From Deltaproteobacteria bacterium (GTDB lineage Bacteria > Desulfobacterota > Binatia > Binatales > Binataceae), in NCBI GenBank assembly GCA_021827495.1, contig JAKAVN010000001.1, positions 9,954 through 73,953 of the forward strand: a DNA stretch of 64,000 bases, written 5' to 3'. Positions within the stretch are counted from its first letter, which is position 1, and each line of letters starts with the position of its first letter. A program made the position numbers and the translations under genes. Shown here one piece after another: positions 3,422 to 51,429 of this stretch. The notes below the pieces were generated by a model, which was not told the origin of the DNA, ran no database searches, and worked only from the letters and a program-made list of their open reading frames with translations.

Positions 3422-4285
3422 TCACTTCGACTCCGAAAGTGCGCGCCTCAGGTCGAACGGCCATTGCTCAGCCGCGTAATCATAGCACAGCCGGATCTGC
3501 TCCTCGCTCAAATGTTGCTCGCGGCGCAGCCAGCGCTCGACCCGGCGCTTGAGTTCGCCGCGGGTCTGCTGCAACCTGCGCGACACGCTGGAGGGATGCT
3601 CGCTGAGCAGCCGGGCGATCTCTCGTAGCGTGAGGTTTTCCAGATAGTAGTAACCCAAGCGCAACCGGTCGCACGGCTCGAGCGCCCCGAGCGCCTCGGT
3701 CAGCGCCGTGCTGAGTGCGGCCACGTAGCGAAGGCGATCGGGGTCGGACGGATCTCCCTCCGTCGCAGGTTCGGTTGGACAGCTCTCCAGCGGCTTAGTC
3801 CGTGCGGCCGCGCGTGTCAAGTCAACGAAGCGCTGCGCGAGCACCGCGTGCAGCCAGGTCCCAAGCGAACTGCGTCCGCCGTAATAGCCGAGCAGCGAGC
3901 GCCGTTCGCCCGCGCGCGTGTCCATCCCGTAAAGGTCCGCCCACAGCGAATCCGCGAGCTCGCGCGCGCCAACCTCGTCGTGCGTCAGCGTCCGCGCCGC
4001 GGCGTAGAGCAGGGGCCGGTACTTTTCGATGAAGCCCTCCCAAACCCGCTCGTTGCCCTGTGTGCAGGCGAGCGCCAGCACCAGGTCGTCGGCGTGCAGC
4101 TTGTCGAGGTATTCTTCGATCGCCGCCGGCGTGGCCTCCGCGCTCCACGCGCGCACGCTGCGATGCAGTGCCGTGCCGAGGTCGGCCGGAGTGAGGCCGA
4201 AGCCGTCGGCCTTGCCGCGCCGATGCAGGCGCACGATCGCCGGCGCGTGCGAGATCAGGAATTCGGCTAATGGGTCGGCCGGCAT
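3422..4285 (-). CDS. RNA polymerase sigma factor, ECF (sigma-70 family) subfamily
   Basis: Region-2 and region-4 motifs (LTLREIARLLSEHPSSVSRRLQQTRGELKRRV) are present; it is co-oriented with the downstream anti-sigma gene. Confidence 0.8.
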   Translation of the reverse strand: MPADPLAEFLISHAPAIVRLHRRGKADGFGLTPADLGTALHRSVRAWSAEATPAAIEEYLDKLHADDLVLALACTQGNERVWEGFIEKYRPLLYAAARTLTHDEVGARELADSLWADLYGMDTRAGERRSLLGYYGGRSSLGTWLHAVLAQRFVDLTRAAARTKPLESCPTEPATEGDPSDPDRLRYVAALSTALTEALGALEPCDRLRLGYYYLENLTLREIARLLSEHPSSVSRRLQQTRGELKRRVERWLRREQHLSEEQIRLCYDYAAEQWPFDLRRALSESK

Positions 4286-9422: not shown

Positions 9423-9677
9423 AATTTCACCGATTGGTCTTTACTCCGGCAAGACATCGTACTAATAGATCGCATTCCGTCGAGGCGCAGACCCGGCGAG
9501 ACACATCGATGAGGTAGCGGATACTCCGGAAACGGAGAAATTGCTGACATAGGCTTGGGCTAGCGCCTGGATCCTGAAGACAGGACCGGGACCCCGAAAG
9601 TGGCTTGAGCGCTCTTCGCGAGCACGTTCGATGCGGGGTTGCCGGTATAGGGTTGCTCCGCATTTTTGTTTGCCTGA

Positions 9678-9797
9678 AGGCTGCGGAAAAACCCGGCGAA
9701 AGACGATTTCGGCGAAGAGTAAGCATCACTGTAACCACGAGAGTGCGTCTTGGGTCAGTGCTGTCAGGAGTCGAAAACACTTTGTCCGCAACCTGCT
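9678..9797. repeat. Copy A of a ~120-bp repeated structured element with terminal inverted repeats (CTGCGGAAAAAC...TTTGTCCGCAACCTG), immediately 5' of panB
   Basis: ~84% identical to copy B at 50141-50266. The first 41 nt are near-identical (GCGGAAAAACCCGGCGAAAGACGATTTCGGCGAAGAGTA). There is an internal hairpin CGAAA-gacga-TTTCG, and the ends are complementary. Confidence 0.7.
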
Positions 9798-9812
9798 GAT
9801 CGAGGGCATACG

Positions 9813-10643
9813 ATGAACAAAGACAAGGTTCGCATTACCGATCTTGCCACGATGAAGGCGGAAGGCCGGCCGATCGCGATGCTGACGGCCTACGATTTTC
9901 CGTTCGCGCGGATCTTCGACCAGGCCGGCATCGACGTGCTGCTGGTCGGCGACAGTCTCGGTATGGTCGTGCAGGGTGCGGACAGCACGCTTGCCGTCAC
10001 CGTCGACGAGGTGCTGTACCACACTCGGATGGTGGCGCGGGCGCGCCGGCGCGCGCTGCTGGTGGCGGACATGCCGTTTCTCTCATATCAGGTGAGCGCG
10101 GAGAATGCGGTTCTGAACGCCGGCAGAATGCTCAAGGAGGGCGGTGCCGAGGCGGTCAAGCTGGAAGGCGGAATCTTGATCGCCGATACGGTGCACAAGC
10201 TGGTTGGCTTCGACATTCCGGTAATGGGCCATATCGGGCTGACACCCCAGTCGATCCATCGGATGGGTGGGCATCGCGTCCAGGGACGGCGCGCCGGCCA
10301 CGGTCCGGGATGCCGAGAGCGCTTGCTGGAGGATGCGGCGGCGCTGGAGGCGGCGGGGGCGTTTGCGATCGTGCTGGAAGGGATTCCGGCCGAGCTGGCC
10401 GGGGAAATTACCGCGCGCTCGGGCGTGCCCACGATCGGGATCGGCGCTGGCCCTTCGTGCGACGGCCAAGTGCTGGTGATGCACGACATGCTGGGGCTCA
10501 GCGAATCCTTCATGCCGCGCTTCGCCAAGCCCTACGCGCGTCTGTGGCATGACGCCGGCGCGGCCACCGCGGCCTACGTACGCGAGGTGCGCGAGCGCGC
10601 CTTTCCCGCCCCGGAACATTGTTACCGCATGAGGGAGGCCTGA
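9813..10643 (+). CDS. panB: 3-methyl-2-oxobutanoate hydroxymethyltransferase
   Basis: MNKDKVRITDLATMKAEGRPIAMLTAYDFPFARIFDQAGIDVLLVGDSLGMV... is a characteristic PanB sequence. The ORF-track start at 9750 would add 21 unlikely residues. Confidence 0.9.
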   Translation: MNKDKVRITDLATMKAEGRPIAMLTAYDFPFARIFDQAGIDVLLVGDSLGMVVQGADSTLAVTVDEVLYHTRMVARARRRALLVADMPFLSYQVSAENAVLNAGRMLKEGGAEAVKLEGGILIADTVHKLVGFDIPVMGHIGLTPQSIHRMGGHRVQGRRAGHGPGCRERLLEDAAALEAAGAFAIVLEGIPAELAGEITARSGVPTIGIGAGPSCDGQVLVMHDMLGLSESFMPRFAKPYARLWHDAGAATAAYVREVRERAFPAPEHCYRMREA

Positions 10644-14480: not shown

Positions 14481-15644
14481 TTAGGCGGGCCGCTCTTGAA
14501 TCCCGTTCCGCCCGTGCCCCTTCGCGGTCATCCACCACAGCACCAAGGCAAAGACGTAAGTGCCAAAGGCCGTTCCCCAGGCGAAATAGTAAACCCTGTC
14601 GAACAGCGCCAGCACGACCAGCAGGTAGGCGAAGTCACGGCCGCTCACCCGCTCAACCTGCGCGATAAACCGCTCGGTCTGTTCGCCGTTGACGCGAGTC
14701 GCACGCCAGGTCGTGAGCGCACACAGTCCAAAACCAACCAACAGAATGGCGAGCAGGTAGATGTAGGCCCGGCTGCTGCTCGCCCGATAGCATCCGGCCA
14801 TGATGCCGGCGAAGAGCGCGACATGCACCAGGTTGTCGGTGAAAACGTCCAGCCGCGCGCCCCATCGCGACTCAGCCATCTTGAGCCGCGCCAGCTCGCC
14901 GTCGACGCCATCGAGGGTCACCGAGACCAGGAACATCAGGGCGGCGGCCAGGCGCGGCCAATAGCCCGCAAAGCTGAACAGCCACGCGCTCAGCAATCCC
15001 AGCGCGGTATTGACGAGCGTCACCTGGTTGGGTGTGATCGCGGTGCGTGCGAGGCGATAGCTGATTCGCCACGACAGCCGCCGGTCCACCCAGCGCGCCA
15101 TCAGCGCGTCCTTGTCGGCGCTCTCGCGGCGCAGCTCGCGCGCCAGCCTGAGTTCGGCCTCGCGCACATCCTCGGCCCGTCCGTCGAGCGCAAAGGGCAA
15201 CTGGCCGCTTGGCGCGAGCCGCGTTGCCGGGCCGCCGGAGCCATCGAGCAGGCGGCCGAGTGGTCCCGCCGCGACGCTGCCGCGGCGCGCGAGGTCGGTG
15301 CTCTCGACGCTGACGACCCCGCCGGGCCGTGCGGCATGGCTATCGAGCAGGCCGCGCAACTGCGAGGCCGCCAGCACCAGGTTGCCCCTAAACGCGACAC
15401 AGGGCGCGTCGGCCGGCATCTGTTCGAGGACCTGGGCAAACGAGCCGACGAAGTTCACCTCGGGATGGTCGCGGAACGAGCCCAACGAGGCGCGCAGGCC
15501 GCCGCGCTCGGCCTCGCTCGCCTCGATAAAGAACCGCTTCACTCCCGCGCGTTGGCAAATAAGCATCAGGCGCTCGATCAGTGATCGCCCGAAGATCGTG
15601 TTGCCCGCACGGCCCGAAGTGTTGATTAGCGCTGTGTCAACCAA
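14481..15644 (-). CDS. IPCT/DIPPS-like bifunctional protein: N-terminal nucleotidyltransferase-like domain fused to a CDP-alcohol phosphatidyltransferase domain
   Basis: C-terminal half has the CDP-OH transferase motif DGxxAR...G...D...D (LDGVDGELARLKMAESRWGARLDVFTDNLVHV) and multiple TMs. The linker (RWVDRRLSWRISYRLARTAITPNQVTL) resembles archaeal IPCT/DIPPS. The N-terminal ALINTSGRAGNT aligns to the GxGTRL signature but is degenerate. The TTG start is uncertain. Confidence 0.7.
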   Translation of the reverse strand: MVDTALINTSGRAGNTIFGRSLIERLMLICQRAGVKRFFIEASEAERGGLRASLGSFRDHPEVNFVGSFAQVLEQMPADAPCVAFRGNLVLAASQLRGLLDSHAARPGGVVSVESTDLARRGSVAAGPLGRLLDGSGGPATRLAPSGQLPFALDGRAEDVREAELRLARELRRESADKDALMARWVDRRLSWRISYRLARTAITPNQVTLVNTALGLLSAWLFSFAGYWPRLAAALMFLVSVTLDGVDGELARLKMAESRWGARLDVFTDNLVHVALFAGIMAGCYRASSSRAYIYLLAILLVGFGLCALTTWRATRVNGEQTERFIAQVERVSGRDFAYLLVVLALFDRVYYFAWGTAFGTYVFALVLWWMTAKGHGRNGIQERPA

Positions 15645-18201: not shown

Positions 18202-19704
18202 ATGAGCAAACCGCACCCGCCGGCGCTTAGGACAGCCGGCGAATTGAAGATCACCAACGGATCCGGAACCGCGAACGGACCAGCTATTTCCAAAGGGCCC
18301 GCGCCCGCCAATGGGGCTGTCACCGCGAGTGAACCGCGGCCTCCTGGCATGCCCGGCCTCCAGCCCAACATCACCACTGCGGTTCCCGGGCCAAAGTCGC
18401 GCGCGCTGTTCGCTGAGGAGCAGAGCCATATCGCGCCGGGCCGCCAGCGTATCTCGCTGCTCGCCAGCCTCGCCTTCGATCATGGCGAGGGCGCCACGCT
18501 GACTGACGTTGATGGCAACGTGTTCGTCGACTTCTTCGCCGGCGTCGGGGTCGCGAGCCTCGGCCACGCGCATCCGGCTCTCGTGCGGGCGCTCGCGCAC
18601 CAAGCCTCGCGGCTCATCGTGGGCACCTTCGCCACGCCCGAGCGCGCGGAGGCCTTCCGGCTGCTCGGCGAAGCCGCGCCCGCGGGCCTTGAGCGTGCGC
18701 ATCTGTACAGCGGCGGCGCGGAGGCGGTCGAGGCGGCGCTCAGGCTCGCGCGCTCGAAAACCAAGCGCCACGAGGTGCTGAGCTTCTGGGGCGGCTTCCA
18801 CGGCAAGACCGGCGGTGTGATTGGGCTCATCGGCGACGAATCCAAGCAGGGCTACGGCCCGTTGCCGGGCGGCCAGTACATGGTGCCGTACGCCGACTGC
18901 TACCGCTGCCCATTCAAAATGGAATATCCGCGGTGCGGGATGTACTGCGTCGATTTCGCGCGCCAGCAGCTCAAGCGCAGCTCCGCAGGCGCGCTTGCGG
19001 CCGTGGTGGCCGAGCCGATGCAGGGAACGGCGGGCAACGTGATTCCGCCCGACGATTATCTTCCCGCGGTCCAGCAAGTCGCGCGCGAGCACGGCGCAAT
19101 GCTCATCGCGGACGAAATGATCACCGGCTTCGGCCGCACCGGGCGCATGTGGGGAATCGAGCACAGCGGCGTCGCACCCGACATCATGACGGTCGGCAAG
19201 GGGATGGGCTCGGGCTTTCCGGTCTCCGGCGTGCTGCTCAGCGAGGAACTGGGACGGAGCGAGCCCTTTGGCAAACCCAGTGCGTCGTCGTCGAGCTACG
19301 GCGGTAATCCGCTGGCCGCAGTCGCGGTCGCCGAGACGCTGCGCACGATCAAGCGCGAAGGGCTGGTCGAAAATTCGGCCGCCGTCGGCGCGTTTTTGCT
19401 CGAGCGCCTGATGCGTCTGCGGGAGAAATACGAATTCGTCGGCGACGTGCGCGGCAAGGGGCTGCTGATCGGCGTCGACCTGGTGCGCGATCGCAAGAGC
19501 AGAGAGATGCTCGGCCGTTCGATAACCGAGGCCATCTTCAAGGAGGCGCTCAAGCGCGGCCTGTTGGTGATGGGTTATTTTCCGCGCATGCGGATCAATC
19601 CACCGCTGGTCATCACGCGCGAGCAGGCCGCGGCGGGTGCGGAAATTCTCGACGAGGTCTTCGCCCACGTCCGCGACCATCTCGACTGGCGCAACGCCCC
19701 GTAG
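18202..19704 (+). CDS. Class-III (omega/GSA-type) PLP-dependent aminotransferase with a ~70-aa low-complexity N-terminal extension
   Basis: GHAHPALV, the FWGGFHGKT glycine-rich region, DEMITGFGRTG, and the pyridoxal lysine in MTVGKGMGSG. Confidence 0.8.
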   Translation: MSKPHPPALRTAGELKITNGSGTANGPAISKGPAPANGAVTASEPRPPGMPGLQPNITTAVPGPKSRALFAEEQSHIAPGRQRISLLASLAFDHGEGATLTDVDGNVFVDFFAGVGVASLGHAHPALVRALAHQASRLIVGTFATPERAEAFRLLGEAAPAGLERAHLYSGGAEAVEAALRLARSKTKRHEVLSFWGGFHGKTGGVIGLIGDESKQGYGPLPGGQYMVPYADCYRCPFKMEYPRCGMYCVDFARQQLKRSSAGALAAVVAEPMQGTAGNVIPPDDYLPAVQQVAREHGAMLIADEMITGFGRTGRMWGIEHSGVAPDIMTVGKGMGSGFPVSGVLLSEELGRSEPFGKPSASSSSYGGNPLAAVAVAETLRTIKREGLVENSAAVGAFLLERLMRLREKYEFVGDVRGKGLLIGVDLVRDRKSREMLGRSITEAIFKEALKRGLLVMGYFPRMRINPPLVITREQAAAGAEILDEVFAHVRDHLDWRNAP

Positions 19705-26633: not shown

Positions 26634-27965
26634 ATGGCCGAGTTACCCGAGTTACCATTGACCTTCATTCGCGGACCCTACGAGCCCCTGCTGATCGACC
26701 ATGCCGAGGGCGCCTGGCTCTATACCGCCGACGGCAGGAAAATCCTTGACGCGGCCGCCGGCGCGGTGGTGACCAATATCGGCCAGGGCCGCGAGGAAAT
26801 CGCGCAACTGGCCGCCAACGAGATGCGCCGCGCCAACTACGTCGTCCCGATCTGGTCGACGCCGCAGCGCCAGCGGCTGGTCAAGCGGCTCGCGCGATGG
26901 ACCGCACCGGGCCTCACCCGGTTCTTCTTCACCTCGGGCGGTTCGGAGGCGGTCGAAGCGGCGCTCAAGTTCGCGCTGATGTATCACAAGGTCCACGGCC
27001 GCCCGCGGCGCACGAAAATCATCGCGCGCGAGGCCTCCTATCACGGCAACACCATCGCGGCGCTGTCGGCCGGCGGCAGCCTGCGCCGCGCCGACTACGA
27101 ACAGGTGCTGTTGGATTGGCCGAAAATCAAACCGTCGTATTGTTACCGCTGTCCGTGGGGCAAGACTTACCCCGGATGCGATATCGATTGCGCCAATGCG
27201 CTCGAGCAAGAGATCAACCGCCACGGCGAGGATTCGATCGCACTGTTTATCGCCGAGCCGATGATGGGCTCGGCAGGCGGCGCGGTACCGCCGGTCAAGG
27301 AGTACTGGCCGCGGCTGGCGGAAATCTGCCAGCGCCACGGCGTGCTGCTGATCGCCGACGAAGTGATGACCGGCTTCGGCCGCACCGGCCGGCGTTTCGC
27401 CGTCGACCATTGGAATGTCATCCCCGACATCCTGATCGGCGGCAAGGGGCTGACCGGCGGCTACCTGCCGATGGGGATGATCGCGGTTAAGGAGCGGCTG
27501 GTCGAGCAGTGCGAAGAGCAGGGCGCCGAGTTCATGTTCTACACCTACAGCGCGCATCCGACCGCCTGCGCGGTGGCCGACCGCGTGCTCGAGATCATGG
27601 AGCGCGAGCATCTGGTCGAGCGCGCGGCCGAGATGGGCGCGCGGCTCGGGGCGCAGCTCAAGGAGGAGCTAGCGGGCCATCCGATGGCCGGCGACATCCG
27701 CGGCGCCGGAATGTTCTGGGGCGTCGAGCTGGTGCGCGATCGCGCCTCGCGCGCGCCGTATCCGCCGGCGCTGAAGGTTGCGAGCAGGGTGGTCGCGGCG
27801 GGACTCAAGCGCGATCTGTTCGTCTATCCGGCGAGCGGGATGGCGCGGCCGGGCGGCGATGCGGTGATGGTCACGCCACCGTTCGTGATCGGCAATGACG
27901 AGATCGAATACCTCGTGAGCCGGCTGCGCGCCACGCTCGACGACGTCCATCCGAATCTGCAGTAG
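26634..27965 (+). CDS. Class-III PLP-dependent aminotransferase
   Basis: FFTSGGSEAVEAALK, DEVMTGFGRTG and the pyridoxal lysine in GGKGLTGG. ATG at 26634 has a better RBS spacing than GTG at 26628. Confidence 0.8.
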   Translation: MAELPELPLTFIRGPYEPLLIDHAEGAWLYTADGRKILDAAAGAVVTNIGQGREEIAQLAANEMRRANYVVPIWSTPQRQRLVKRLARWTAPGLTRFFFTSGGSEAVEAALKFALMYHKVHGRPRRTKIIAREASYHGNTIAALSAGGSLRRADYEQVLLDWPKIKPSYCYRCPWGKTYPGCDIDCANALEQEINRHGEDSIALFIAEPMMGSAGGAVPPVKEYWPRLAEICQRHGVLLIADEVMTGFGRTGRRFAVDHWNVIPDILIGGKGLTGGYLPMGMIAVKERLVEQCEEQGAEFMFYTYSAHPTACAVADRVLEIMEREHLVERAAEMGARLGAQLKEELAGHPMAGDIRGAGMFWGVELVRDRASRAPYPPALKVASRVVAAGLKRDLFVYPASGMARPGGDAVMVTPPFVIGNDEIEYLVSRLRATLDDVHPNLQ

Positions 27966-32487: not shown

Positions 32488-32540
32488 AACGCAACGATTC
32501 TCACATTTGCCGGCGCGGCTTGGAAAGCCGCTGCGCGATC

Positions 32541-32635
32541 TTCGCGCCGCCCGTTTCGCGCCGCCCGTTTCGCGCCGCCCGTTTCGCGCCGCCCGTTTCG
32601 CGCCGCCCGTTTCGCGCCGCCCGTTTCGCGCCGCC
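32541..32635. repeat. Perfect 14-bp tandem repeat (TTCGCGCCGCCCGT) x 6 plus a partial seventh copy, intergenic
   Basis: Read directly at 32541-32624 as six identical units; the seventh diverges after 11 nt. It lies between the kinase stop (32649) and the PHP start (32487). Confidence 0.9.
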
Positions 32636-32648
32636 GGCGCGGGCGTTA

Positions 32649-34271
32649 CTATGGGCCGGCCGGAGAGTCGCGCACGCGGAGGCTGTTGTTGAAGGAAACC
32701 ACGCCTGCAACGCTCTGCGCGAGCAGCAGCACGGCCGCATTGTCGGCCGCACTTGGCACCGTGCCCCACAGTTGCATCGTGTCGCCCACCATCCGGAAGT
32801 GCACCGAATCGTAGCCGCTCGCGTCGAGCGCGGCGCGAAAAGCCTCCAGCCGTGCGGCGAGGAACTGCGAAGGTCCGGGCGGGGAGCCAGGCGCGGGGGC
32901 CTCGGGCGCCACGTCAGGCGCCGGCACGTCAGACGCCGGCGCGCTGGCGCGGCTCGCGTCGGGCGGGTTGCCGCCGGTGACGTTCAGGCACGCCTTCACG
33001 GCCGCGAAGGCGAGTACGAAGATGAGCATCAGCACCAGGATGGGGCGACGCGCGCCATGCGTGCGATGGTAGAGCCGTGCGCGGCGCGGCGGCACGTGCG
33101 GCCGCGTCTGGGTCGATGGCGGCACCGAGAGCACCACGGTCTCGGCTTCGTGATCGGCCGCAACATCAGCGTTGCCGGGCGCGAGGCTCACCTCCGCGCC
33201 GCAAAAGGAACAGAAGCGCGAGTCGGAGGGAATCGGGCGTTCGCATTTCGGGCAGTCGATGTCCGCTGCCGCACTGAGCAGGGTTGGCGCGGACGGCGAC
33301 GCGGGTTGCGGCGCGCGAGCGCTCCCCAGCGGCAAGCGAAGCTGCGAGCGCGCGGGGCTGGACGCCGCGTGTGGTAGCGCCGTTGATTGCGATGCTCCGG
33401 CCGCTAACGGATATGCCCCGCTGTCTGTGTGGTTGGCCGACGGTGGCGCCGCCGCGGCCGCCGGAGCGGCGCTGTCGCGAATCTCCTCCAGCCGGCGCTT
33501 GAACTCCGCCGCGCTCGGCACCCGGCGCTCGACGTCGTAGGCGAGCGCGCCGTCGACCAGCGCCGCCAGCGCGGGCGCGGCGCCGGGGCATAGCGTGGCG
33601 AGCGGCGGAAAGCTGAACGGCGCTTCGTTGGCCGGGTCGCGCCCGCTTAGCGCGTGATGCATCGTCGCACCGAGCGCGTAGAGGTCCGAGCGCAGTTCGA
33701 CCTTCCCGCGGTACTGCTCGGGCGGCGCGTAGCCCTGAGTGCCGATCATGGTCGCGTTCTGCTCCGGCTGGAAATGGCGCGCGATGCCGAAGTCGATGAG
33801 CTTGGCCTGCCCGTTGGCGATCAGCATCACGTTGGATGGCTTGAGGTCGCGGTAGATGACCGGCGGCTGAAGACCATGCAGGTAGGCGAGGGTGTCGAGG
33901 ATTTGCAGCGCGATGTCGATGACGCGCGTCTCGGCGAGCCGTCCGCCCGCGCGCTTCATCTCCTCCTCGAGCGTCGCGCCGTCGATGTATTCCATCACCA
34001 GGTAGTGATGGTTTTGTTCGCTGAAGCGGTCGAACACGCGGGGGATGTGCTCGTTGCTCAGCCGCGCCAGCATGTCAGCCTCGCGCTGGAAGGCGTCGAC
34101 CGCCTGGCGCTGCGCGTCGGGGTTGGTGAAGTTGTCGATCACCTCGGCCAGCGCGCAGCGGCGCGCCGCCAGGCGCAGGTCTTCGGCCAGGTAGACCAGC
34201 TTCATCCCGCCGCCGCCGAGCGGCTTTACGACACGGTAGCGGCCGCCGACTATGGTGTTTGGCGCAATCAT
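32649..34271 (-). CDS. Ser/Thr protein kinase with zinc-ribbon, transmembrane segment and C-terminal BON domain
   Basis: Hanks kinase motifs: GGGGMKLVY, VIYRDLKPSN, DFG, APE. A CPKCERPIPSDSRFCSFCG zinc ribbon and a TM (ILVLMLIFVLAFAAV) follow. C-terminus is BON-like (VHFRMVGDTMQLWGTV...AGVVSFNNSLRV). Confidence 0.8.
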   Translation of the reverse strand: MIAPNTIVGGRYRVVKPLGGGGMKLVYLAEDLRLAARRCALAEVIDNFTNPDAQRQAVDAFQREADMLARLSNEHIPRVFDRFSEQNHHYLVMEYIDGATLEEEMKRAGGRLAETRVIDIALQILDTLAYLHGLQPPVIYRDLKPSNVMLIANGQAKLIDFGIARHFQPEQNATMIGTQGYAPPEQYRGKVELRSDLYALGATMHHALSGRDPANEAPFSFPPLATLCPGAAPALAALVDGALAYDVERRVPSAAEFKRRLEEIRDSAAPAAAAAPPSANHTDSGAYPLAAGASQSTALPHAASSPARSQLRLPLGSARAPQPASPSAPTLLSAAADIDCPKCERPIPSDSRFCSFCGAEVSLAPGNADVAADHEAETVVLSVPPSTQTRPHVPPRRARLYHRTHGARRPILVLMLIFVLAFAAVKACLNVTGGNPPDASRASAPASDVPAPDVAPEAPAPGSPPGPSQFLAARLEAFRAALDASGYDSVHFRMVGDTMQLWGTVPSAADNAAVLLLAQSVAGVVSFNNSLRVRDSPAGP

Positions 34272-49894: not shown

Positions 49895-50140
49895 CTTCGG
49901 CGGAGGGCGAAGGCGAAGCGGCGTCGGCTGCCGGGTCGAGCCCGGCGAGCGCCGTGCGCGGGAAAACCATCAGTAGGAGATTTTATCTTTCGGGCGAGTG
50001 TTTGCCCGCGTGATACGCCAGCGGATAGGGATAGAAGACCTGCGCGGCCTGCGGGCCGTACTTCGCGATGGCCGCGCGGACGGCTCTGCGGCCGCCGGCC
50101 TCAGCGCTCACGCGACCATCCGCTGGCAGGTTCTCCTCTT

Positions 50141-50266
50141 TAGCAGGTTGCGGAAAAACCCGGCGAAAGACGATTTCGGCGAAGAGTACGCATTACTACG
50201 ATCACGAGAGTGAGTGTTGGATTAATGTTGTCCGGGGTCAAAAACACTTTTTCCGCAACCTGTTAG
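50141..50266. repeat. Copy B of the ~120-bp repeated structured element (terminal inverted repeats TAGCAGGTTGCGGAAAAAC...TTTTTCCGCAACCTGTTA)
   Basis: Aligns over ~116 nt with copy A at 9678-9797 (~84% identity). The 15-bp ends are exact reverse complements. It sits between convergent genes. Confidence 0.7.
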
Positions 50267-50784
50267 AACAGCGGACAGTTGCTTGGATCGGCTCCGTCTT
50301 TACAATACGTGTGAGTGAGAGGTCCGCCCAGCGAAGTGCATACACCATTTGCGTTATCACACAGAGTAGGATTGGTATAGCTAATTGAAAGCAACACGAC
50401 GTCCCCGTCCGCCGGACACGTCCCTCCCTGCGGCGGGTCGAAGTCGTAGGATTGCTGAATTACTCCCCGCCTGGATGCTGTCAACTCAAACGGTCCGTTT
50501 ACGTGTCCGGGTCCACTGTACGTTTGGGTGGCCATGATAGCACCTGCCGCAAGACAGCCAATGGTCACAGTGACTTCTCCGGTCACGGAGTAGTCGACTG
50601 TACTATAAGGAGGCAGCCCGGATTCGCGCCACGAATAGTATAAGTCACCGATTTCGTGGGGCACGGACCGTGCAAAGTTGACTTGGGCGCGGGTCAAATC
50701 GAACTGCGCAGCCCGTGCGCCGCAGCAGATCAACATGAGTAGTGTACTGGCGCAAGCAACAGCCCCAAGCCGAACAAATTTCAT
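50263..50784 (-). CDS. Hypothetical secreted Cys-rich protein (low-GC gene)
   Basis: Signal peptide MKFVRLGAVACASTLLMLICCGARA. Ten Cys residues in the predicted product. GC is ~52% against ~67% for the window. Confidence 0.5.
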   Translation of the reverse strand: MKFVRLGAVACASTLLMLICCGARAAQFDLTRAQVNFARSVPHEIGDLYYSWRESGLPPYSTVDYSVTGEVTVTIGCLAAGAIMATQTYSGPGHVNGPFELTASRRGVIQQSYDFDPPQGGTCPADGDVVLLSISYTNPTLCDNANGVCTSLGGPLTHTYCKDGADPSNCPLF

Positions 50785-51429
50785 AGGCGTCTTCCGGCCC
50801 CGTCTCCGAACGATTGACGTTGCAAGAACGCAAGGGGCGTGCCGATGCAGGAGGATTGCTGGCCGCGCATGTCCTGGCAATGACGTGGGGACAGGTTTGC
50901 GCAGGTTTGCGCGAAGGGACGTTTACGGATCGAGAGTGCCCGTAAAGGCGCGGTCAGAATGGAAGTGATCATGGCGGCGAAAGCGGCAGAATGCGGGCGC
51001 ACGCAAACCGATTAGCCGGCGGATGTGACAAAAAGTTGGCGCAGCAGTACCGCCATCACTCCGGCCGCGCGCGTGACCGGCCACATCAGCAGCGCCGCGC
51101 CGGGAATCGTCGTCGACCAGGCCAGCGTGCATCCGGCCGTCGCTCACGCGGCCTTGGTGAACAGCGGGTCGAGCCGATGCGAGCGCGCGTGGGATCTGTG
51201 GATCGCCGGCGGCGCCGAAGCCGAGACGGAGGTGAGAAAAGCCGCCAAGCAGCGGAATCCCGAGAAAAGCGAAAGACGCGATGGCGTAGATGGCGAGCGC
51301 TGCGGCGGGCTCGGCAGGCCGGCCCGGCGGGGTTGCGCTGCGCGCTGGCGGCGTCATCGGCGGCCGAGGATGGCCCTCTCTCGTGTGCTTACGCGATAAA
51401 CCCCGTTTCCCTGAGTCATTGCAGGGCTG

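Follow-up and report, generated by a model that had tools for sequence, protein, structure and literature searches.

The repeat of about 120 bp that lies in the 5' leader of panB is, with a probability of roughly 90%, an IS5-associated bacterial MITE, representing a new member of a well-known type of element. The window, which is the whole stretch of 64,000 nucleotides of DNA that was analysed, contains two copies of it, copy A in front of panB and copy B at an unrelated site. The closest named homologues of the PanB protein belong to Candidatus Binataceae in the phylum Binatota. A first-pass annotation of the window had left three readings for the repeat: it could be a cis-regulatory RNA such as the pan motif, it could be a gene for a small RNA, or it could be mobile and MITE-like. 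The last reading was upheld, since terminal inverted repeats, target-site duplications, an empty site, the interruption of a gene and an IS of the IS5 family with the same ends and the same target were all observed. The two RNA readings were not supported.

Two Copies of a Short Repeat in the Window

Copies A and B had been described as about 84% identical, and this was confirmed by the alignment, with 18 differences over 119 aligned positions (85% identity). None of the differences falls in positions 16-45, and 14 are found in positions 46-95. The near-invariance reported before for the 5' segment was thereby also borne out: the first ~45 nt are common to both copies, and a 39-nt core, GCGGAAAAACCCGGCGAAAGACGATTTCGGCGAAGAGTA, is exact in both and has exactly two occurrences, with 0 expected from 100 shuffles. 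The internal hairpin CGAAA-GACGA-TTTCG was located within this segment (Table 1). Comparison of the copies showed that the ends and the subterminal 5' region are conserved and that the interior of the element is variable. The repeat is crossed only by ORFs of 35-40 aa, which run into the flanks, and contains no transposase gene.

For both copies, the sequence likeness breaks off sharply at each end, which indicates that no larger duplicated segment extends beyond the repeat. The first-pass annotation had considered that the similarity might belong to a larger duplicated segment; the flanks were found to be unrelated right up to the ends of the element. A search of the window with nhmmer, using a profile from five copies, identified no additional one. 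That the two copies are left over from a segmental duplication, or are alike by chance, is favoured by nothing beyond their presence. This explanation is refuted by the unrelated flanks, and the exact 39-nt match and the existence of more copies on other contigs, each in different surroundings, also speak against it, leaving it practically no probability.

The ends of the repeat had been described as exact reverse complements. This is correct for copy B, in which CAGGTTGCGGAAAAA and TTTTTCCGCAACCTG form an exact 15-nt inverted repeat, but not for copy A, in which the ends (A)AGGCTGCGGAAAAA and TTTGTCCGCAACCTG contain three mismatches and the terminal C is absent. For the copies on other contigs described below, 15/15 positions are complementary in L006, L033 and L022, as in copy B, and the inverted repeats are decayed in L045, as in copy A. 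The long closing stem proposed for the element likewise stood for one copy and not for the other. The predicted fold of copy B was more stable than that of shuffled sequence (z -4.0, either strand), but the fold of copy A was no better than shuffles (z -1.3), because its inverted repeats are decayed.

Paralogous copies of a gene for a small RNA could account for the invariant 45-nt 5' segment and for the stable fold of copy B. The stability, however, stems from the inverted repeats and is the same whichever strand is folded, and the orientation relative to the neighbouring genes is inconsistent. Scans for sigma-70 promoters and for terminators identified no consensus in either copy, and no Rfam family was found. 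Moreover, target-site duplications are present and one copy interrupts an ORF, so that a small RNA gene is considered very improbable.

Copy B abuts the stop codon of a minus-strand ORF at 50263-50880, which begins like a signal peptide (MKFVRLGAVACASTLLMLICC...) and has no match in Pfam. The surroundings of this ORF (50200-50900) have a lower G+C content of 47-60%, compared to 66%. Other repeated sequences in the window are a tandem array at 32527-32652, consisting of about eight copies of the 14-bp unit TTCGCGCCGCCCGT, and several direct-repeat segments of 75-86% identity at ~18700-19500 and ~26900-27750, with an offset of ~8.24 kb. The latter suggest two paralogous genes; an Aminotran_3 gene is listed at the ~18700-19500 site in the contig table.

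Table 1: Features of the repeat, its flanks, the panB leader and the partner IS. Positions refer to the window unless a contig label is given.
Feature	Position	Strand	Remarks
Upstream hairpin, same architecture (two bulged A)	9476..9501	+	Conserved in relatives; Rfam blind to it
Pan-like hairpin, two bulged A	9565..9592	+	Rfam RF01749, 19.2 bits (gathering threshold 36.2); outside the element
Terminator-like hairpin GCGGGG...CTCCGC + T5	9633..9667	+	Conserved; repeat 7 nt downstream of T run
Left target-site duplication, copy A	9674..9677	.	CTGA; relatives have a single CGA/CCGA here
Repeat (probable MITE), copy A	9678..9795	+	118 nt, 5'-terminal C missing; in panB 5' leader
5' terminal inverted repeat, copy A	9678..9691	+	AGGCTGCGGAAAAA, decayed
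Subterminal hairpin CGAAA-GACGA-TTTCG	9697..9711	+	Within the invariant 5' 45 nt
3' terminal inverted repeat, copy A	9781..9795	+	TTTGTCCGCAACCTG, 1 mismatch
Right target-site duplication, copy A	9796..9799	.	CTGA
Shine-Dalgarno-like GAGGG of panB	9802..9806	+	7 nt downstream of the element, ATG at 9813; conserved in relatives
Left target-site duplication, copy B	50140..50143	.	TTAG
Repeat (probable MITE), copy B	50144..50262 (start 50144/50145)	+	119 nt, intact; abuts the stop codon of minus-strand ORF 50263-50880
5' terminal inverted repeat, copy B	50144..50158	+	CAGGTTGCGGAAAAA, identical to IRL of the L221 IS
3' terminal inverted repeat, copy B	50248..50262	+	TTTTTCCGCAACCTG
Right target-site duplication, copy B	50263..50266	.	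TTAG; includes, as TTA, the TAA stop of the minus-strand ORF
Complete IS	L221 2916-4226		1311 bp; metagenome contig; IRL CAGGTTGCGGAAAAA, IRR CAGGCTGCGGAAAAA, CTAA/CTAA duplication

An Empty Site in Related panB Leaders

For comparison, the PDZ-panB intergenic regions of eight Binataceae-like relatives were used, with PanB proteins that are 78-93% identical. In all eight, the leader is colinear with the one in the window, from a promoter-like box through the ribosome-binding site, and is devoid of exactly the element. This shows that an empty site exists at the locus of copy A. The filled site in the window reads ...TTTGC CTGA-(element)-CTGA TCGAGGGCAT, and the empty site in the relative L093 reads ...CCGCGC CGA TCGAGGGCAC. 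The insertion point lies 7 nt after the T run of the terminator-like hairpin and 7 nt before the GAGGG sequence. The distance between copy A and the ATG of panB at 9813, first given as 15 nt, was corrected to 17 nt.

Further Copies and Target-Site Duplications

Copies in other genomes were searched for with exact patterns, which miss diverged copies. A 20-base pattern was used on 185,579 species genomes and identified one true further copy (L006), in addition to two chance matches. For metagenomes, a 19-base core pattern was used on 241 million records; here, 83 loci were obtained, of which only three are true copies (L033, L045 and L022). Their identity to copy B is 92-94%, and they are located on contigs with a G+C content of 52-57%, compared to 66% for the window. 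No match was identified in PLSDB by BLAST with the element. As judged from the exact-pattern scans, the MITE family is rare.

The first-pass annotation had proposed a check for target-site duplications, and the outcome was positive. Perfect direct repeats of 4 bp flank all four copies with intact ends, namely TTAG for copy B, CTAA for L006, CTAG for L033 and CTAA for L022. All four fit YTAR, which was reported as the target-duplication motif of IS5 (PMC5009759). The duplication of copy A, CTGA, is off this motif, and its reading presumes the loss of the 5'-terminal C. At two insertions, a stop codon is provided by the target: copy B lies on the TAA of ORF 50263-50880, and the L022 copy on the TAG of an ORF at 10-339. 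The flanks of all copies are mutually unrelated.

A Third Copy Splits hsdR in the Same MAG

Over 119 nt, the L006 copy agrees with copy B at every position (100% identity). It is located at 3622-3740 (corresponding to L228 3882-3999, and also present in L231), within a type I restriction-modification operon, where it splits hsdR. When the element and one CTAA were excised in silico, the truncated HsdR ORF of 658 aa was converted into an uninterrupted ORF of 815 aa. From this reconstruction, hsdR is a defence gene predicted to be inactivated by the MITE. The same split hsdR locus was identified on contig DAHVIR010000089 of GCA_027321845.1, the MAG which also holds the contig of the window, so that this genome has at least three copies. 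The panB contig itself is identical in GCA_027321845.1 and GCA_027403275.1. Since the hsdR copy does not differ from copy B, both are considered recent, and their identity suggests recent movement of the element.

The L006 record, GCA_021827255.1 (L006/L231), is titled "Acidobacteria bacterium YP4.bin65". A transfer across phyla, considered on the basis of the 100% identical copy in this MAG, was rejected, as the same locus is present in the MAG of the window. The title of the record is no evidence for a spread across phyla, because the closest named relatives of the neighbouring gene are from Binataceae. An LLM oxidoreductase encoded on the L006/L231 contig is closest to Candidatus Binataceae proteins, and the MAG of the window contains an identical contig. 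Probably, the label of GCA_021827255.1 is loose or the contig was mis-binned. On a further contig (L229 1-141; k141_45957, ERZ27237313), the element bridges the hsdR-side flank and the right flank of copy B (ttagaaca). This junction is either an assembly ambiguity at the 119-nt identical repeat or a real recombination between the two copies.

A Probable IS5-Family Partner with the Same Ends

For identification of a partner IS, viral contigs were scanned with YTAR combined with the inverted repeat, and two hits were obtained, L210 and L116. With the 15-nt inverted repeat by itself, more than 120 matches were obtained in viral contigs; these are located inside phage genes and were rejected as chance. 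Pairs of inverted repeats at a distance of 0.8-3 kb (L101, L208, L123 and others) were also rejected as ISs, as unrelated ORFs are located between them.

L116 carries a left IS end at 14662-14783 and runs off the contig after the start of an ORF (MRGKDEQQLDVF). A protein query was built from 12 residues of L116 extended by a consensus, and only the database proteins and contigs returned by it count as evidence. Many proteins with exactly the N-terminus of L116 and the Pfam domain DUF772 were obtained. A complete IS was identified on the metagenome contig L221 (Table 1), with the same end picture as L116. Its IRL is identical to that of the MITE, and its IRR differs at one position. The IS contains two ORFs, orfA with DUF772 and orfB with DDE_Tnp_1, which are split by a one-base frameshift, a base being missing at a G run (CTCGATGGGACATT). 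When the frameshift was repaired, the resulting transposase of 362 aa matched NF033581 (NCBIfam, IS5 family) end to end with 284.8 bits, compared to a cut-off of 140. On the IS1182 model it scored 211.7 bits, which is under the cut-off of 270. Scored separately, as called, the two ORFs reached 98 and 133 bits.

The copies of the partner IS that were examined carry the frameshift, and the split frame may reflect a programmed frameshift or a lineage that is inactive and widespread. The same orfA of 155 aa is present in many database entries. In L223-L227, the IS is present without its left end. When the interior of the IS was sought in viral contigs, only L116 was found again, and no copy of the partner IS was identified in the window or in the ~100 kb of the MAG that were read.

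The likeness between the MITE and the L221 IS is confined to the ends of 15-16 nt, which shows that the MITE did not arise from this IS by simple deletion. A second MITE was identified in L210, an IMG/VR contig, at 2749-2857. It comprises 109 nt and has the same ends, a CTAG duplication and an unrelated interior. This suggests that several MITE families may use the same transposase. With four MITE copies, the L210 MITE, the L221 IS and the one-sided flanks of L116 and L223 taken together, seven of the eight readable flanks are CTAA, CTAG or TTAG; the exception is the CTGA of copy A.

The Native panB Leader and the Pan Motif

The pan RNAs are described as stems with two conserved bulged A residues, occurring mostly in tandem upstream of panB or panC (PMC2864571). 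The first-pass annotation had placed the repeat at the position of this motif. A pan RNA or another riboswitch-like leader RNA of panB would be in agreement with the location directly 5' of panB and with the hairpins contained in the repeat. However, the proposed search with covariance models, including the pan motif, gave no match in either copy, neither at gathering nor at permissive thresholds; the search was also run on the whole window and on the relatives. The only match to RF01749 is located outside the repeat, at 9565-9592. The bulged-A stem which defines pan RNAs (PMC2864571) is absent from the predicted folds of the element. Further, only copy A is located upstream of panB, while neither copy B nor the hsdR copy is beside pantothenate genes, and the relatives retain the pan-like hairpins without having the repeat. 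The empty sites and the contexts of the other copies refute this reading, which is regarded as extremely improbable.

The positional intuition of the first-pass annotation was nevertheless close, as the pan-like hairpin is present in the same leader, ~85 nt upstream of the repeat. The match covers the second hairpin of the pan model, with both bulged A residues included. The panB leader (9441-9670) is strongly conserved in the eight Binataceae-like loci and contains a promoter-like CTTTAC...TAATAG and a middle hairpin at 9517-9546. The upstream and the terminator-like hairpin are conserved in 8/8 relatives, the latter not being flagged by a simple terminator scan. Overall, 98% of the leader hairpin pairs are intact in the relatives. 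Six changes affect one side of a pair only and none is compensatory, so that the structure of the leader is compatible with the data but unproven. Since bulged-A stems in tandem upstream of panB/panC fit the published description of pan RNAs, the native panB leader is probably a diverged pan-type attenuator below the Rfam threshold.

Proposed Mobilisation and the Role of Copy A

The element is non-coding. Its movement probably depends on a DDE transposase supplied in trans by an IS of the IS5 family that has the same 15-bp ends. We infer that the transposase of this IS family is the mobilising enzyme. By analogy with IS5, the transposase would bind to both ends and excise or copy the element, which would then be inserted at a 4-bp target of the YTAR type that is duplicated on either side. 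The conserved 45-nt subterminal segment may help in the binding of the transposase. Copy A is an older insertion, now decayed in part, which separates the terminator-like hairpin of the panBC leader from the ribosome-binding site of panB. With copy A at this position, a panBC mRNA formed by read-through would carry ~122 extra nt in its 5' UTR. Arguments against the MITE reading are the rarity of the family in the exact-pattern scans, the confinement of the likeness with the IS to the ends, the CTGA duplication of copy A, the frameshift in the IS copies and the absence of the partner IS from the window and the ~100 kb of the MAG that were read, so that a resident source of transposase is only putative.

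Most simply, copy A in the panB 5' UTR is a tolerated passenger. It is unlikely, though compatible with a MITE origin, that copy A was exapted as a cis-regulatory part of the panBC leader, with an influence on translation, on mRNA stability or on the uncoupling from the pan-like attenuator. Its location downstream of the terminator-like hairpin and upstream of the Shine-Dalgarno sequence, its fixation in 5/5 near-identical contigs carrying this panB and the strong conservation of the leader around it would be in agreement with such a role, as would the weakened inverted repeats, which reduce the long closing stem. However, all eight relatives, with PanB proteins of 78-93% identity, do without the element, and no promoter-like or terminator-like site was found in it. 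When the element was folded along with the ribosome-binding site, the stability did not exceed that of shuffles (z +0.29), and the same element also occurs within hsdR and downstream of an unrelated gene. There is only a slim chance that a co-opted copy A changes the control of pantothenate synthesis in this Binataceae lineage, either as a structured spacer of ~122 nt between attenuator and ribosome-binding site or by its 45-nt segment as a protein- or RNA-binding module.

Comparison to Known Elements

The 4-bp target duplication of the YTAR type is shared with IS5 of E. coli and its family (PMC5009759). The transposase of the partner matches NF033581 over its full length and combines DUF772 and DDE_Tnp_1, as in InsH-type transposases, and the partner IS, with 1311 bp, is within the size range of IS5 (1195 bp). 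Unlike IS5, the element in the window is without a transposase, and the frame of the partner IS is split at a G run. The ends of the MITE, CAGGTTGCGGAAAAA, and of IS5, GGAAGGTGCGAATAAG, are only loosely alike (about 10/15 with a gap), which is a lead and not evidence.

MITEs with ends of the IS5-family type have been described before, namely BrickBuilt, MITE293 and MITE700 in Porphyromonas gingivalis and ATR in Neisseria (PMC4596501). Like the repeat, they are short and non-coding, have ends identical or near-identical to those of IS5-family members with nothing else in common with the IS, and are dispersed in intergenic regions (PMC4596501). They differ from the repeat in sequence, in inverted repeats and in the host phylum, which is Binatota here. 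For BrickBuilt, the duplications are irregular, whereas regular 4-bp YTAR duplications were identified here. In comparison to these families, the copy number is low, with at least three copies in the genome.

In the pan motif RF01749, the similarity is one of location, in the 5' leaders of panB/panC operons (PMC2864571), and the sub-threshold pan-like hairpin is found in the same leader as copy A. The repeat differs by having no similarity to the model and no bulged-A stem and by its absence from the orthologous leaders.

Some resemblance is also seen with the Correia elements (CREE/NEMIS) of Neisseria. These are MITEs of 100-150 bp which are often located in 5' leaders, where they form a long inverted-repeat stem in the mRNA. 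They differ from the repeat in the duplication of TA, in inverted repeats of 26 bp and in the presence of copies in hundreds. A further difference lies in the promoters, IHF sites and processing by RNase III that are documented for Correia elements.

Conclusions

If the co-option of copy A were true, this MITE family would resemble Correia elements in carrying a functional module that is portable. For the discovery of RNA motifs, there is a practical lesson in that a repeat with predicted structure which adjoins a biosynthetic gene can turn out to be a transposon, with the real leader RNA lying beside it. Since the element marks the end of the native panB leader, the sub-threshold pan-like leader of Binatia becomes easier to delimit. 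The repeat most probably provides a clean example of a recently active MITE together with its IS5-family partner in the uncultured phylum Binatota. In one genome, an insertion predicted to knock out a restriction-enzyme gene is present together with an insertion inside a probable regulatory leader for vitamin B5.
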